NCBI GenBank assembly: GCA_011364975.1
Contig: RDOE01000065.1
Span: 1-18,478 of the forward strand
Reading direction: 5' to 3'
Origin: Promethearchaeota archaeon
GTDB taxonomy: Archaea > Asgardarchaeota > Lokiarchaeia > Sigyniarchaeales > SOKP01
DNA: 18,478 nt
In this document: positions 2,710-18,477 of the stretch, piece by piece
How the letters are laid out: each line of letters opens with the position of its first letter
Position numbering within the stretch: the first letter of the stretch is position 1
Made by a program: the position numbers and the translations under genes
Notes under the pieces: generated by a model
What the model saw: the letters and a program-made list of their open reading frames with translations, nothing else
What the model was told of the DNA's origin: nothing
Database searches by the model: none

Positions 2710-3663
2710 TTATTCCTTATTTTTTTTCCCCGACTTCTTAAGTTTCTTCTTTTCTTTTTTTTCCGCGCGTAATCTTTTCTCTTTTTCAGTAAGTTTCACT
2801 AAAGTTTCTTCGCCAAATTTCCTAGTTAATATAATTGCGATTGCCCAAGTTATTAATGCTGTTATTACTCCACCTGCACTATCGGTAACTCCTCCGAACA
2901 TGACCTGAGGAATGAAATTTAGTAATCCGTGGAATAGAATCATAATGAACACGCTTTTAGTATTATTATAAATCCATGTATAGATTATTGATACTCCGAT
3001 TGTACTCGCTGTAAAACCTATAATTGAAAGAATTGATAAATATGGTCCAAAATTTAGCTGAGTTAAATACAAATACAGTAAGTAAGGATAATGCCAAATT
3101 GACCACACAATCCCGAGTATTATGCTTGATTTATTTGCATTGTATTTTTCTTGTAGGGTTGGAAGTGCATATCCTCTCCACCCAGGTTCTTCTAAACCCG
3201 ATGTCAAGGTTGTATTAAGAAACATTAAAAATACAAATAAGGCAGACATTCCAGGATTAAATAGCTTTGTAACATCGGTGAATGAAAGTAAAGCACTAAG
3301 AAAGAAAATTACTAATGATAAAGCTATTATTATACCATACCATTTGATGTGTACTTTTACTTTTCCTATGCGTCTTAGTAAATCGATTAAACCTTTCCTT
3401 TTTTTAGTCATTGTTATTATAATGACAGCAGCTATGAATGGCCCATAAACGCCAACTTGATTAAGAATAAATGTAAACATATGTAGATCATCAATAAATC
3501 CCTCTGAAATCAATTGGTTAAAAGTCAAAATACTCGGCATATAGTAATCATTTAAAGCAGAAATTAATAGAGTAGGTATCCAAAAAAGCCAGGTTATCCC
3601 AATTGCGAGAATAAAATACTGGAGTAATGGGTTTTTCAATGATAATAATGATTGTTCTGACAT
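2710..3663 (-). CDS. CPBP family (Abi / CAAX protease type II) intramembrane glutamic endopeptidase
   Basis: Multi-TM protein with GLEEPGWRGY, WSIWHYP and ILFHGLLN motifs; lysine-rich C-terminal tail. Confidence 0.92.
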   Translation of the reverse strand: MSEQSLLSLKNPLLQYFILAIGITWLFWIPTLLISALNDYYMPSILTFNQLISEGFIDDLHMFTFILNQVGVYGPFIAAVIIITMTKKRKGLIDLLRRIGKVKVHIKWYGIIIALSLVIFFLSALLSFTDVTKLFNPGMSALFVFLMFLNTTLTSGLEEPGWRGYALPTLQEKYNANKSSIILGIVWSIWHYPYLLYLYLTQLNFGPYLSILSIIGFTASTIGVSIIYTWIYNNTKSVFIMILFHGLLNFIPQVMFGGVTDSAGGVITALITWAIAIILTRKFGEETLVKLTEKEKRLRAEKKEKKKLKKSGKKNKE

Positions 3664-5628: not shown

Positions 5629-6819
5629 ATGAACTTTTCTTTAGATCATTTTGATAAATACGTAGACCGAACACAGACTTGGTCTATTAAATGGGACCCT
5701 GATTACATGATTGAGAGATTTGGTACAGCAGATTTTCTCCCATTTAACCATGCAGAAATGGATTTTGAATGTCCTAAGCCCATTATTGATGCTATACGAC
5801 AGCGCAGTGATCATGGGATATACGGTTATACATTAGTCAAATCAGACTACTATGATTCTGTTATTCGATGGTATCAGCATCGTCATGGTATTAAGTTTTC
5901 AAAGGAAGAGATTCTCTATTCTACGGGCGTTGTATTTAGTTTAAGAAATGTTATCCAATTTTTTACGAATATAGGAGATAAAATCTTAATTTTCCCTCCG
6001 ATTTACAGACCTTTAGCGGAAGCAGCAACAGATCAAGCTCGAAAACTCATTATGGTCCCCCTTCGCCTTAAAGAAGGAACCTATCAAATGGATTTCGATC
6101 AAATTGAATATGCATTCCAGACTCATTCCATTAAACTAGTCATTTTATGTAATCCTCATAATCCAGTGGGTCGCGTTTGGACGCGCTCAGAATTGCAGCG
6201 TTTAGGTGATTTATGTTTGAATTATAACGTAATGATTGTTTCCGATGAAATTCATTGTGATATCCTCTCACAAGGATATCATTATAGCTCAATTGCATCA
6301 ATTTCTCCTGAATTAGGATTAAAAACAATTATGCTTAGTTCAATGACAAAAACATTTAATACTTCTGGTCTAAAAATCGCTAACATTTTTATTAAAAATC
6401 CTGAAATTAGAATACCTTTTTTCCGGTTTTTCGATAAAAAATTTATTTATGCTCCCAACGTATTTGGAATTCTCGGAATGCAAGCTGCATATAATCACTG
6501 TGCTCAATGGGTGGATTTATTGGTCCAATATTTGGATGATAACTTTCGTTTTGTGCAAGAGTATCTTACAAAACACGAGATGAATATTGACTTAATCCAA
6601 CGTGAAGGCACTCCGCTTATTTGGCTTGATTTCCGAAAAATTCCATTGGCTCCCGATCAAATATTTCAGTATCTCATTAAAAAAGCCCATATTATACCCT
6701 ACGATGGTAGGGATTTCACAGCGAATGGAGAAGGATTTCAACGCTTAAGCATTGGTTATCCTCGCAAAATATTAAAAGAAGGGCTCGATAGGATTAGGAA
6801 GGCAATCCAACTACTCTAA
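5629..6819 (+). CDS. patB: MalY/PatB family PLP-dependent C-S lyase (cystathionine beta-lyase-like)
   Basis: SIKWD, AEMDF, HGIYGY, LCNPHNPVGRVW, SDEIHCD and SMTKTFN (PLP lysine) motifs. Confidence 0.9.
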   Translation: MNFSLDHFDKYVDRTQTWSIKWDPDYMIERFGTADFLPFNHAEMDFECPKPIIDAIRQRSDHGIYGYTLVKSDYYDSVIRWYQHRHGIKFSKEEILYSTGVVFSLRNVIQFFTNIGDKILIFPPIYRPLAEAATDQARKLIMVPLRLKEGTYQMDFDQIEYAFQTHSIKLVILCNPHNPVGRVWTRSELQRLGDLCLNYNVMIVSDEIHCDILSQGYHYSSIASISPELGLKTIMLSSMTKTFNTSGLKIANIFIKNPEIRIPFFRFFDKKFIYAPNVFGILGMQAAYNHCAQWVDLLVQYLDDNFRFVQEYLTKHEMNIDLIQREGTPLIWLDFRKIPLAPDQIFQYLIKKAHIIPYDGRDFTANGEGFQRLSIGYPRKILKEGLDRIRKAIQLL

Positions 6820-6864
6820 ATCAAATATAGAGAGAGCGTTGAATTTAATAAAAAGTTAATTTAG

Positions 6865-6934
6865 GTTTGGTAAGGTGTGGCTAACCATTAAAAGTAAAAT
6901 ATCATGCTTGTTTTCAATTTTACTCTTTCCAAAC
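6865..6934 (-). promoter_or_regulatory. SECIS-like RNA element in the 3' UTR of the selenoprotein gene (circularly permuted eukaryote-type layout)
   Basis: mRNA reads GUUUGG A AAGAGUAAAAU UGAA AACAAGC AUGAU AUUUUACUUUU AA UGG-UUAG-CCA CACCUUA CCAAAC. This gives an 11-bp helix, a tandem G.A core, an AA dinucleotide, a 3-bp mini-hairpin and a 6-bp closing helix. It begins 7 nt after the stop. Folded by eye. Confidence 0.65.
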
Positions 6935-6941
6935 ACATTTT

Positions 6942-7409
6942 TTATATTTTCTCTAAAATTTCGAATAATATTTCGTTTTCAGGAATATCCGACATACTAT
7001 CTCCGTAATAAGCATGCTGAATGATACCTGCTTTATCCACAACTAAAAGTCCCGGCATCCTTCCTCCCTTTAACAATTTTATCTCTTGGTTCAGCATTTT
7101 TGGTACCTTTTTTGAAGGATCGTAGAAGACTGGGTATTTCCGAGCATATTTTTCTTCTAATTTTTTTGCATTTTCTTCAGAATCGGCTAAAATTGGATAA
7201 AGGTAGGTATCCATTTGTTCAAATTTCTCATAATCTTTTCTTAAATGGGCCGCGTGCCATCTACAATAGGGTCAATTTATATTTCGAAACAATACAATTA
7301 CTACTTTTTTCTTACCCTCTAGATCTCTTATATTTACAGATTCTCCTCTAGAATTTGGTAAGGAAAATTCTTGAATTTTCGTACCAACTAGTTGAAATTT
7401 ATCTTTCAA
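6942..7409 (-). CDS. Peroxiredoxin-like (AhpC/TSA, PRX-like2 / SelU-like) selenoprotein, 155 aa, Sec at codon 46
   Basis: The tracked 90-aa ORF extends upstream in frame through one TGA (7272-7274) to a TTG start at 7409, with GTGA SD at 7416-7419. Sequence: MKDKFQLVGTKIQEFSLPNSRGESVNIRDLEGKKKVVIVLFRNIN-U-PYCRWHAAHLRKDYEKFEQMDTYL... The TGA is the first position of a thioredoxin-fold (C/U)xxC motif. Confidence 0.92.
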
Positions 7410-7551
7410 TAATTATCACGCAGAAAGGTTCTTCTAGAAGGTATTTATTGCATCAATAAAAAATTTACTAGTAACTTTCTAATCATTTTAAGACAAGAAT
7501 AAATTATTTAATTTTAAAAAAAAATATTAATGAATATAAAAAAGTTATAAT

Positions 7552-15774: not shown

Positions 15775-18477
15775 TTAATCGGTTATTTGTATGACTGCTA
15801 ATGCATTTAAATTAGTATAAAATTTGGCTAAATTGCGTTTCTTCATTTCATTAAGTAAATCTTCATATTCAAAAGCAAGATCATCAACTAATCTTTCGAT
15901 CTTTTTTATATCTTTTCTAATAAAATTGATTTGTTCCTCTAACTCCTGAATTTTCTCTAAGCGCTCCTTCTTTTTGCTTTGATCGGTTAATTTTTCAATA
16001 TTGAGCAACTGTTTTTCTGTGGGTCTCTTTTTTTCTTGGCGTTCCAATGTTTTTTTCAAGGTTTCCAATCTAAGATAGAACATTCTTTTTCGGTATTCAT
16101 AGATTTTCTCTTTTTTAATTTGTTCCTTCTCAAAGATTTTTTCATTTAATGCTTTTATCTCTTTTTTCCAAAGGGAAGTTTTCAACTTTACTCGATCCTT
16201 AGCTTTAATTCTTAAGGAATCAAGCAGTTTAGGATTTATAGGTTCAAAATCGTCTAACTTAATGGTCAGATCAAACAATTTCGCAAAATTATTAATATCT
16301 AATAACGTATCGGGTAGATTTATAAGTTCTAGAAGGTATCCTTGAAATTTAACATTGAAGATGAAGAGATATAATTGATTATGAATTCGAATTTCATTCT
16401 TCAAAAATTCAGGAAGTAATTTTTCTTTTACTTTTAATACAGTAAAATTACCTTTGAAAGAAGTAGATTTGCAAAAATCTATAATAGAATTTATCAAAGG
16501 ATGACCTAAAGCAAAAAAGTCGATATCTTCCCTTTCTCGAGCCAATTCTAAATTAAAGGTACCAACATATTCTTCTTGTAGCTTATAATTATCATTAAAA
16601 GCCTCCATTAATGTGATTTTTATTAGATTATTACTTTTCTTAGCCTCTGGTTTCAGAACTTCATTTATGCTAGCTATAGTTCCATAATTGTGATTTTTAA
16701 GGTCTAAAAAATATTTTGTCAGCAAGAATAATTCATTATGAGACAATTTTACCTCTTGACATGCTTCTAATGAGGTTATTAAATCATCTATCTGGAAGGA
16801 TTTTTTATCAATCAATAAATCATCCAGCTGCATTTCCATTTCTTTAGCTTGTTTGACTTCAAGATCTAATTTTCTATTAAATTCATTCAATTTTTTTCTT
16901 CTAGATCCATCCTCCTCTGTAAAAATAATAGCCTTAATATCTTTCTCGATAGTTCCGATAATGGGTTCTAAATGACCAATAGACTCCTCGAATAAATGTA
17001 TTCTTTTATCTAGTGCAAAAATAATATCAGTTTCGATTGTACCTTCGAGATAAAAATTATAAATATAGATTTCTTTTGATTTTTGACCAATTCTATCAAG
17101 ACGTCCAATCCTTTGTTCTAATTTCATAGGATTCCAAGGTAAATCATAATTAATTAGTACTCTAGCAAATTGGAAATTTCGCCCTTCACCACCTATTTCG
17201 GTTGATATCAGGATAGATAATCCTTTATGATTTCGGAACCTTTCAACAGCATTATCTTTCTCTTCTTTATTCATTCCGCCATAAAAGATTTCAACATAAT
17301 AATCTTCCTTTTGGGATTCAAGAGAATACTTTAAATGGAAGACGGTATCAACAAATTGACTAAATATTATAATTTTTTCATAGGGATTTTGTGCATGAAT
17401 TTGTTTGACTAATTCTATTAATTTAATAATTTTAGAATCATATGGTAAATCCTTTAACTTATTGTAAAATTCTTTTAATATTTTTTCTTGGTTTAATAAA
17501 TCAAGTGCACTCTCATTAGGCTCTTTTTTGTTTTTTTCAATAAAAGAATAGGCAAATTCAGTATCTAAATATTCATCTTCTAATTCGGATTCGAAAAATT
17601 CTGGATCCTCTTCAATTAATTCATCTAAATCAACCGAAATAGTTTTTAAGCGCTGAATTTGTTCTAATCTTCTTTCAAGACTTTTCAAAAATGCGGCTTT
17701 AGAACTAGTGAGAAGTTTTTGTAAGGTGGTAATTACAAAGCCAATTCCTACATTCTCTTTGCTAATTGAGGAATTGTATATTTTAGCTAAATATAATCGA
17801 ATTTCCTTGTATAATTCCATTTCTTGTTTAGAAGGGTTAACCAGTATCGTTCTAACAATACGTTTATTCAAGAGAGTTTCTGCAAAAACGTTTTTTTTGC
17901 GATTTCTAATAAGAAATTGAGAGAGTGTATGATCTTTTTCAATTCTCTTTAATAAATTTGATTTAAACGAATTTTCATTCAATTTATCAAGAACGTCACT
18001 ATCTGATTCTTTTTTGCCAATATAATTAAGATCTCGAAGTAATTTGAAAGTGTTTTGTACTTCAAATTTATTCAATTTGTCAATTTGGTTTAAATTTGAA
18101 ACTAATAAGTTTATAAAAGGCATATTTTTTCTAAAATGCTCAAAATTAGAAAAATTATCGAAAGCTTCCCGCTGTATTAACTCAATAAGAGAATATAACT
18201 CGAAAGAGTGAAGTTGTAAAGGGGTTGCAGAAAGTAATAACATAGATTCAGTAGAAATACTCAATCTACGTGATAATTCAAAATTTAATGTCTCCCGATA
18301 ATTTTCTGTCGCTGCGTTCATCAAGTAACGCCTTAAATGATGAGCCTCATCAAAAATGACAATATCCCAAGAAATTTGTGATAATAATCCCGCATATTTT
18401 CTATTTCGTGCAAATTGAAGAGAACAAATGATTAGATTATTATTATAAAAAGGATTAATATATGTTTCTTGAGTTTT
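15775..18477 (-). CDS. SNF2/RapA-like SF2 helicase/ATPase, 5' end outside the window
   Basis: The frame stays open to the window edge and includes WDIVIFDEAHHLR (DEAH at 18340-18351). Also LLLSATP, IIFSQF, STEIGGEGRNFQ and NYDLPWNPMKLEQRIGRLDRIGQ; long charged coiled-coil C-terminus. Confidence 0.92.
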   Translation of the reverse strand, partial: KTQETYINPFYNNNLIICSLQFARNRKYAGLLSQISWDIVIFDEAHHLRRYLMNAATENYRETLNFELSRRLSISTESMLLLSATPLQLHSFELYSLIELIQREAFDNFSNFEHFRKNMPFINLLVSNLNQIDKLNKFEVQNTFKLLRDLNYIGKKESDSDVLDKLNENSFKSNLLKRIEKDHTLSQFLIRNRKKNVFAETLLNKRIVRTILVNPSKQEMELYKEIRLYLAKIYNSSISKENVGIGFVITTLQKLLTSSKAAFLKSLERRLEQIQRLKTISVDLDELIEEDPEFFESELEDEYLDTEFAYSFIEKNKKEPNESALDLLNQEKILKEFYNKLKDLPYDSKIIKLIELVKQIHAQNPYEKIIIFSQFVDTVFHLKYSLESQKEDYYVEIFYGGMNKEEKDNAVERFRNHKGLSILISTEIGGEGRNFQFARVLINYDLPWNPMKLEQRIGRLDRIGQKSKEIYIYNFYLEGTIETDIIFALDKRIHLFEESIGHLEPIIGTIEKDIKAIIFTEEDGSRRKKLNEFNRKLDLEVKQAKEMEMQLDDLLIDKKSFQIDDLITSLEACQEVKLSHNELFLLTKYFLDLKNHNYGTIASINEVLKPEAKKSNNLIKITLMEAFNDNYKLQEEYVGTFNLELAREREDIDFFALGHPLINSIIDFCKSTSFKGNFTVLKVKEKLLPEFLKNEIRIHNQLYLFIFNVKFQGYLLELINLPDTLLDINNFAKLFDLTIKLDDFEPINPKLLDSLRIKAKDRVKLKTSLWKKEIKALNEKIFEKEQIKKEKIYEYRKRMFYLRLETLKKTLERQEKKRPTEKQLLNIEKLTDQSKKKERLEKIQELEEQINFIRKDIKKIERLVDDLAFEYEDLLNEMKKRNLAKFYTNLNALAVIQITD

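Follow-up and report, generated by a model that had tools for sequence, protein, structure and literature searches.

Selenocysteine (Sec) insertion sequence (SECIS) elements of Asgard archaea have been used in arguing the origin of eukaryotic Sec insertion, and surveys of them know hairpins of types I and II only. These two types are also the only ones in the available parts of a 2026 review (PMC13188914). Mariotti et al. (2016; PMC4989117), in the parts available, describe the lokiSECIS beside the stop codon in the 3' untranslated region (UTR) of Lokiarchaeial selenoprotein genes, give the lokiSECIS of all peroxiredoxin-like (PrxL) genes the canonical shape, and report the SECIS-binding protein SBP2 as absent from Lokiarchaeota. 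About 15% of Asgard selenoprotein genes are without a recognised eSECIS-like structure, according to the available parts of Huang et al. (2024; PMC11227280). Here we analysed a stretch of 18,478 nt, the window, which is contig RDOE01000065.1 of the Promethearchaeota archaeon assembly GCA_011364975.1. It carries a PrxL gene with an in-frame UGA, followed directly by an RNA element drawn as a three-way junction. We propose that this element is a SECIS built as a three-way junction, with its core at the loop end of the long helix, that would recode the upstream UGA; we give this whole explanation a probability of roughly one half.

The gene is an open reading frame (ORF) of 155 codons with a TAA stop at 6944-6942 and matches PF00578 (Pfam, E 2.7e-23). 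Its in-frame UGA stands in the context N-I-N-U-P-Y-C, giving a U-P-Y-C motif (U, Sec), and the Prx-like UxxC redox box is known from Lokiarchaeial selenoproteins, as the available parts of PMC4989117 state. The closest protein relatives sit in Promethearchaeota / Promethearchaeia metagenome-assembled genomes (MAGs) of Asgard archaea, and the source assembly (3.74 Mb, 30.6% G+C; the window is its contig C167) holds a single TGA-containing AhpC/TSA gene. A preliminary description of this DNA, made from the letters alone, had placed the element in the 3' UTR of an archaeal selenoprotein gene, and this placement holds. The element begins 4 nt past the TAA and about 330 nt downstream of the UGA. 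A convergent gene ends at 6819 and thus limits the non-coding 3' UTR to at most about 120 nt. Contigs from independent studies span 6800-7248 with one difference (X15) and 6875-7433 with none (X3); since they hold the same sequence, the element is not an assembly artefact. The features are as follows, with their basis in brackets (MFE, minimum free energy; K-turn, kink-turn; K-loop, kink-loop).

6942-7409, minus strand: peroxiredoxin-like (AhpC/TSA family) selenoprotein gene (ORF list, translation with TGA=U, Pfam)
7272-7274, minus strand: in-frame UGA, codon 46, read as selenocysteine (translation with TGA=U)
6861-6938, minus strand: whole conserved three-way-junction element, candidate SECIS, 78 nt (covariance model R1)
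6929-6934, minus strand: 5' strand of closing helix P1, GUUUGG, partner 6865-6870 (MFE fold, covariation)
6917-6927, minus strand: 5' strand of helix P2, purine-rich, 11 nt, AAGAGUAAAAU (MFE fold, parser, covariation)
6901-6916, minus strand: terminal loop of P2, 16 nt, candidate loop-capped K-turn (K-loop) core (sequence)
6890-6900, minus strand: 3' strand of P2, pyrimidine-rich, 11 nt, AUUUUACUUUU (MFE fold, parser, covariation)
6887-6889, minus strand: junction J23 (AAU), including AA 6889-6888 (parse)
6874-6886, minus strand: hairpin P3, GGU 6886-6884 with ACC 6876-6874, loop UAGCCAC 6883-6877 (parse, covariation)
6873-6871, minus strand: junction J31 (parse)
6865-6870, minus strand: 3' strand of P1, CCAAAC (MFE fold, parser, covariation)
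6850-6854, minus strand: U5 tract, likely archaeal transcription stop past the element (sequence)

All letters named in the preliminary description are present on the minus strand where it put them: AUGAU (6905-6901), AUUUUACUUUU (6900-6890), AA (6889-6888), AAGAGUAAAAU-UGAA (6927-6913), U5 (6854-6850) and the pair GUUUGG/CCAAAC (6934-6929 / 6870-6865). The P2 loop opens with U-GA-AAA (6916-6911) and closes with AUGA-U (6905-6901), such that G6915 A6914 face G6903 A6902, with a U.U adjoining the helix. In most relatives P1 has 7 bp, its first pairs being G-A with U-C (here 6934-6929/6870-6865), and junction J12 measures one to three nt.

Among the described systems close to this locus is the lokiSECIS. 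Both belong to selenoprotein genes of Lokiarchaeia and lie in the 3' UTR next to the stop codon (PMC4989117, available parts), both use the letters AUGA, GA, an A-run and UAG around an A/U-rich helix of about 10 bp, and both coexist in the same genomes. The canonical lokiSECIS is a single hairpin, whereas here AUGA and GA are opposed across the terminal loop of the long helix, a separate closing helix serves for entry, and a third hairpin carries the UAG inside UAGCCA; R2, a covariance model that we built from six canonical hairpins, has no match to the PrxL element. The eukaryotic type II SECIS likewise shares the core letters and, on one strand, the succession of AUGA-N, a helix strand, unpaired A's and a small hairpin. 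Unlike in type II, the complementary strand bearing the GA lies upstream here, there is no helix I, and the AA is not conserved. In the euryarchaeal SECIS, a GAA/A internal bulge separates a G+C-rich lower stem of 10 bp from a 3-bp G/C upper stem (PMC4989117, available parts); the layout of the PrxL element differs when compared by description, because it has 31% G+C and an uninterrupted P2. The junction, P1 and the UAGCCA hairpin belong to neither the type I nor the type II model as given in the available parts of PMC11227280, and those parts make no mention of a permuted or three-way SECIS. Indeed, a junction or permuted SECIS is undescribed in the literature that we searched, with the reservation that the supplements of PMC4989117 and PMC11227280 may list the hairpin as type I.

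The MFE structure of 6850-6945 (RNAfold) recovered the outer helix, the 11-bp helix and the small hairpin, in agreement with the topology proposed beforehand. The stability of this fold counts against the proposal: the MFE of -12.3 kcal/mol compares with a mean of -10.47 for dinucleotide shuffles (z -0.66), and 48 of the 200 shuffles were as good. The fold of the window alone thus says no more than chance.

The structure is carried instead by its conservation. An ortholog with one TGA at the same place occurs in 37 of 61 related genomes, and the same three-helix structure opens the ortholog 3' UTRs, where RNAfold recovers it independently in most cases. A descriptor parser found it in 28 of 29 orthologs, the remaining one having two P2 mismatches. 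We built the covariance model R1 from the 3' UTRs of 23 orthologs, seeded from one genus. In its own 3.74-Mb genome, R1 has one match, 6861-6938 on the minus strand (76.6 bits, E 1.2e-11). Across the class, it matches in 74 of 151 genomes, mostly once per genome, and in other classes of the phylum the element is also found in orthologs of three families (f18, f21 and f24). The aligned sequences are relatives, and the counts given here and below are not independent events. In a MAFFT alignment (A2), 93.2% of the cells are paired and both sides change at 11 of the 21 pairs. In an alignment of 87 copies (A4), which was fitted to the model and so leans towards the structure, 96.6% of the cells are paired, with compensatory change at 19 of 21 pairs and 118 changed cells. 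None of 500 shuffles scored as high in either alignment, and slid controls of A4 reached 33-61% paired.

All three helices contribute to this signal. In A4, P1 has 98.2% of its cells paired and compensatory change at five of seven pairs, P2 has 94.9% with compensatory change at 10/10 modelled pairs, and P3 has 98.2% with change at 4/4 pairs. P1 and the 11-bp P2 are therefore supported as the preliminary description had drawn them. Its mini-hairpin UGG-UUAG-CCA was set in the wrong register, for the conserved helix joins G6886 G6885 U6884 with A6876 C6875 C6874, and its AA at 6889-6888 does not survive as a SECIS feature, because the junction columns are mixtures of A and U. The stem of P3 varies from A-A-G-U/A-C-U-U through A-A-C-U/A-G-U-U to G+C-rich versions. 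Its loop, which the first inspection had passed over, is the most conserved part of the element (U87 A84 G86 C86 C84 A86 of 87). The strands of P2 are purine-rich on the 5' side and pyrimidine-rich on the 3' side, each in 86 of 87 copies.

Several loci stand outside the 87 copies. R1 misses the divergent forms at L028-L031, L146, L147 and L074, which we drew by the parser, by RNAfold or by eye. No junction was seen at L148 (family f3). An R1 match at L111 (36.5 bits) follows a GTPase-like ORF without a TGA and was left out of the counts as a false positive. The single-contig genomes G050 and G055 hold a divergent form, and cultured Asgard strains appear to have related forms.

The element travels with Sec-coding genes. 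In 86 of the 87 copies it starts between -5 and +11 nt from the stop codon, and 84 follow an ORF with an in-frame TGA; the ORFs read UxxC (63), UxxA (15), UxxU (5) and UxxS (1), and three could not be parsed, one at a contig end, one in a truncated duplicate and one with a TGA stop. The three-way junction envisaged at the outset is thus conserved, and it is specific to TGA-containing orthologs. When we looked for the structure after TGA-less homologs, it was absent in both that were examined. These two have Asp at the Sec position (L027 in G058, and the second gene of L013, G057:C126:6218-6685; motif L-M-D-L-F-C), and because the residue is Asp and not Cys, they are probably not redox-equivalent.

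Could the element be something other than a SECIS, such as a small RNA or a structure of the 3' UTR that acts in stability, termination or regulation, with Sec inserted through another signal? Oligo-U ends archaeal transcription. The U-tract noted past the element has its counterpart in a run of at least 5 T within 45 nt downstream in 63 of the 87 copies (at least 4 T in 78), which makes a role in 3'-end formation conceivable, and the TGA-less negative controls number only two. Archaeal termination is not known to require a hairpin, which counts against a terminator. Moreover, no other SECIS candidate was found by R2 in the window or in 18 PrxL loci, the element bears the signature letters of a SECIS, and at least three classes retain it wherever the TGA persists, including UxxU and UxxA genes and each copy of tandem genes. 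We consider a function other than SECIS very improbable. The conserved covarying structure, the association with TGA genes, the lack of a canonical SECIS nearby and the Sec machinery in the genome together make 6861-6938 very probably the SECIS of the PrxL gene, as far as sequence comparison can tell.

The Sec machinery of this genome includes SepSecS (367.6 bits) and, beside it, an 87-nt tRNA-Sec-like gene that scores 40.3 bits, under the Rfam gathering score of 47; its UCA anticodon was seen by eye, and ARAGORN found no tRNA at the locus. A SelB-like GTPase scores 234.5 bits, just below the curated 242, and a PSTK-like gene scores 166 bits, below its cut-off. Three of these genes form a cluster on contig C106 (32958-39594), with the tRNA-Sec candidate 230 nt from SepSecS and the SelB-like GTPase about 4 kb further on.

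The same genome also makes use of canonical elements. In a scan for AUGA-stem-loop-GA, VhuD/HdrA-type genes with in-frame TGAs were found to be followed by lokiSECIS hairpins of textbook form (a 9-bp helix and an 11-nt loop), and R2 has six matches in this genome and at least one in 60 of 61 genomes of the family. Forty aligned canonical elements all have AUGA, GA and a 9-bp helix; their apical loops are 11 nt long with AAA at positions 3-5 and a final G in 40/40, and end in UAG in 35/40. Standard SECIS models miss the PrxL element, as had been predicted: Rfam at gathering thresholds gives 0 matches for it, and R2 with its filters off gives none at the element or at P2 up to E 10. Over the whole window, the best R2 score with filters off is 15.5 bits (E 0.15) at 18037-18074, 11 kb from the PrxL gene, and in the 18 PrxL loci R2 matches its own seed only. 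A canonical SECIS near the gene, which could have served it instead, was thus not found by R2. A different PrxL paralog (L071, motif W-U-S-H-C) has a canonical element of 51.2 bits.

Where, then, does the SECIS core lie? In the preliminary description, AUGA and GA formed a core in permuted order, the core being capped by a short loop. In the window and on deep branches this polarity stands, whereas the expected invariance fails: the P2 loops of the 87 copies are symmetric GA/GA in 37, GA/AA in 10 and other in 40. Among orthologs of other classes that were examined, all but one (AUGG) have the core motif, GUGA variants included. A protein tree (quick IQ-TREE, midpoint root, 37 of 90 inner branches open, L071 and L074 outside) places GA/GA on deep branches and other loop types in derived clades. 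The N.N beside the GA's of the loop takes any combination, like the 3b.3n position of a K-turn, and GA/GA occurs in 0/40 canonical apical loops. The strand 3' of AUGA/RUGA is pyrimidine-rich in canonical elements (33/40) and in P2 (86/87) alike. Furthermore, the sole invariant UAG of the PrxL element lies in P3, about 20 nt past the RUGA, as in the canonical hairpin. In combination, the GA/GA loop, the strand composition and the position of UAG put AUGA, the A's, UAG and GA in the order expected of a circular permutation. A test of the helix base agrees with the loop-end placement, since the flanks there are GG-A and AA-U and not AUGA/GA, which are found at the loop end. Archaeal box C'/D' K-loops, which are bound by L7Ae, have tandem G.A/A.G beside one helix, and a terminal loop takes the place of the other. 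Exactly such a loop arrangement is found, by sequence, in 37 of 87 PrxL copies; the PrxL context differs in being an mRNA 3' UTR without guide function, and the loop extends 10 nt beyond the GA pairs.

A number of observations weigh against a core at the loop end. In the registers tested, 40 of the 87 copies have neither symmetric GA/GA nor GA/AA, and the motif is missing in clades that retain Sec, namely the UxxA clade, genus g21, genera g8/g9 of family f2, and family f4. Nothing in the P2 loop is universal except its A-run (81/81), the hallmark of ordinary apical loops, and the P2 loop of genus g18 (11-13 nt, A-rich, ending GAG) matches some canonical loops. Scored with a weight matrix of canonical loops, the P2 loop reaches a mean of 5.0 (best of several windows), against a mean of 0.8 for the 11-mer ending at the UAG of P3 (single window). 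Matrices of the canonical stem strands put only 9/87 and 2/87 above the random 95th percentile, which is not significant. P2 exceeds the canonical 9-bp helix by 2-3 bp, and the AA after P2 is not conserved.

These points feed a competing explanation, an unpermuted SECIS in which P2 is an ordinary upper helix with an A-rich apical loop and the junction and P3 have taken over from the basal K-turn and would supply the kink or a protein contact; the GA/GA of some lineages would then be local variation of the apical loop. The A-run falls in the first 9 nt of the loop in 81/81, the same as the AAA of the 40 canonical loops, and genus g18 and genera g8/g9 of f2 (Lokiarchaeum-like) look canonical, with a P2 stem of 9-10 bp and a loop of 11-13 nt ending in G. 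In 58 of 87 elements it is the P2 loop that scores highest with the canonical-loop matrix, and the dispensability of GA/GA in several Sec-retaining clades fits as well. However, AUGA and GA are invariant in 40/40 canonical elements, and a SECIS without any core would therefore be odd in this lineage; the junction has no conserved G.A tandem that could take its place. The RUGA that closes the P2 loop on its 3' side is conserved (A57 U74 G59 A61 of 87) but occurs in only 3/40 canonical loops. The last loop nucleotide is G in 40/40 canonical elements, whereas only 23 of 81 P2 loops end in AG, and the 16-nt loop on the 11-bp P2 of the window ends in GAU. The strand composition of P2 is also inverted relative to canonical elements when read unpermuted, and even with its filters off and up to E 10, R2 gives no match to P2. 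We regard an unpermuted element as rather unlikely.

The published type I pattern also bears on this question. Its loose form (PMC11227280, available parts), which we re-implemented without indels, formally matches P2 at 6931 with UGGAA, 10 bp, a 16-nt loop and UAAUG (-6.6 kcal/mol), which speaks for the unpermuted reading. Because the pattern formally fits, PrxL hairpins may already have been counted as type I in the 85.1% given in the available parts of PMC11227280. The 'GA' of the fit is nevertheless paired in P1 with covariation and so is not a core. We also considered a K-turn at the base of P2 (UGGA ... AA) and rejected it, because G6930 and G6929, the G's of the formal 'GGA', form Watson-Crick pairs with C6869 and C6870 in P1, and of the 86 distinct rows, 82 and 84 respectively have G-C at these pairs, with A-U as a replacement. 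An AUGA 5' of P1, which often overlaps the stop codon in relatives, was rejected as a core as well: its G and A form Watson-Crick pairs with U-C (G-C 71, G-U 4, A-U 3 for the first pair; A-U 77, G-C 5 for the second), and no GA follows P1.

With both sides weighed, the permuted core is plausible by the polarity of the loop and the pyrimidine-rich strand after AUGA, and falls short of proof because the A-run in 81/81 loops also fits an unpermuted element. We judge the odds that the permuted mapping is correct to be about even.

The prominence of P3 suggests another possibility, in which the UAGCCA hairpin and the junction are the main determinant, a recognition site specific to PrxL, and P2 serves as a spacer or stabiliser. 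The extreme conservation of the loop and the covariation at all four pairs of P3 favour this, and the loop is kept in family f4 and in the second PrxL paralog L074 (as UAGCAAU), where the P2 loop differs. Genera g8/g9 of f2, on the other hand, have a GCCC-type loop in place of UAGCCA and yet retain the Sec codon, P2 and its A-run are as widely conserved, and no partner of the loop was found by looking at pairing with the coding sequence and with the tRNA-Sec candidate. Pairing of loop GCCA with the UGGC of W-H codons about 12 nt past the UGA was discarded, as genes that code for CRAH, CKRH or CRRH there still retain the loop, and no complement of the loop was found in the tRNA-Sec candidate. 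We think it improbable that P3 is the main determinant.

We return to the permuted reading to set out how the element might work. Lying right after the stop codon, it would direct UGA recoding in the PrxL mRNA. It would fold into a closing helix P1 of 6-7 bp, an A/U-rich hairpin P2 of 10-12 bp and a short P3 with the UAGCCA loop. The core, RUGA on one strand and GA on the other with tandem sheared G.A pairs, would sit at the far end of P2 under a K-loop-like cap, and not in its usual position at the base of the helix beside a lower helix. Compared with the canonical lokiSECIS of its own genome (AUGA, 9 bp, 11-nt loop ending in UAG, 9 bp, GA), the connectivity would be circularly permuted. The junction and P3 would stand in for the apical region, the former apical loop (A's ... 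UAG) having turned into the junction and the hairpin with the UAGCCA loop, and the mRNA would enter and leave at the former apical end through the new closing helix. In both architectures, the same spatial arrangement would then be presented to a K-turn-binding protein or to the Sec elongation factor. The SECIS function, the formation of a K-loop, the history of permutation and the binding partner are what we infer from these data.

Such an element could have arisen from a tandem duplication of a lokiSECIS and the subsequent loss of the outer halves, which would yield the observed order of motifs. The permuted form would date back at least to the divergence of several Asgard classes and would work beside canonical elements in one cell. 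We put forward this natural circular permutation, with the core as a K-loop, entry at the former apical end and origin by duplication and loss, only tentatively, its chances lying a little below even.

The PrxL element represents a second, structurally distinct signal, which is conserved, covarying and specific to a gene family, beside the canonical hairpins. Selenoprotein finders that rely on SECIS models would mis-draw or miss the PrxL family, for which a model such as R1 is a remedy. A cell that must accept two architectures limits what an Asgard SECIS-binding factor can recognise, and the PrxL element amounts to a natural experiment in which the parts played by core, helix length and distal motif could be told apart. 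If the permuted reading is true, it would be a circular permutation of a functional mRNA element, a rare event in RNA evolution, and the Asgard Sec machinery would read the three-dimensional arrangement of core, helix and distal motif and not the connectivity of the chain.

Some further observations concern the PrxL family itself. A U-P-Y-A subfamily has Ala in place of the resolving Cys; its members make up a separate clade with a distinct type of P2 loop, 15 nt long and ending in UUGA (L012, L014-L020, L022-L026, L038, L039, L047, L049, L078, L087 and L108). Tandem PrxL genes at L038 (G061:C26), L143 (G190:C4) and L144 (G205:C16) have one copy of the element after each gene, and at two of these three loci a UxxC gene stands beside a UxxU gene. 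At L058 (G136:C62), a second copy of the element lies downstream of a truncated PrxL fragment from the C-terminal part. The paralog at L074 (G055:C1, ~339389-340000; motif Y-U-V-P-C) has a junction-type 3' UTR, in which an 8-bp helix closes two hairpins, one of 8 bp capped by an A-rich loop of 12 nt and one of 4 bp whose loop reads UAGCAAU. The nearest non-archaeal relatives of the PrxL protein (L209-L252) are in MAGs of Anaerolineae/Chloroflexota, Thermoleophilia and Coriobacteriia at 32-41% identity, which hints at an inter-domain transfer of the family.

Two other loci of the same genome deserve mention. On contig C71 (~3064-3110, plus strand), a hairpin resembling type II (AUGA, then 8 bp, a loop of 17 nt that contains a 3-bp ministem, and GA) is situated downstream of an ORF some 315 codons long in which no TGA is obvious, and may be a SelD-type lokiSECIS or a chance match. 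On contig C169 (~63860-64374, plus strand), two in-frame TGAs stand side by side in the closing part of an ORF about 158 codons long, which reads ...D-V-G-C-U-U-E-K...; downstream lies a lokiSECIS of canonical form (47.2 bits), and the ORF may represent a selenoprotein family with a C-U-U motif.

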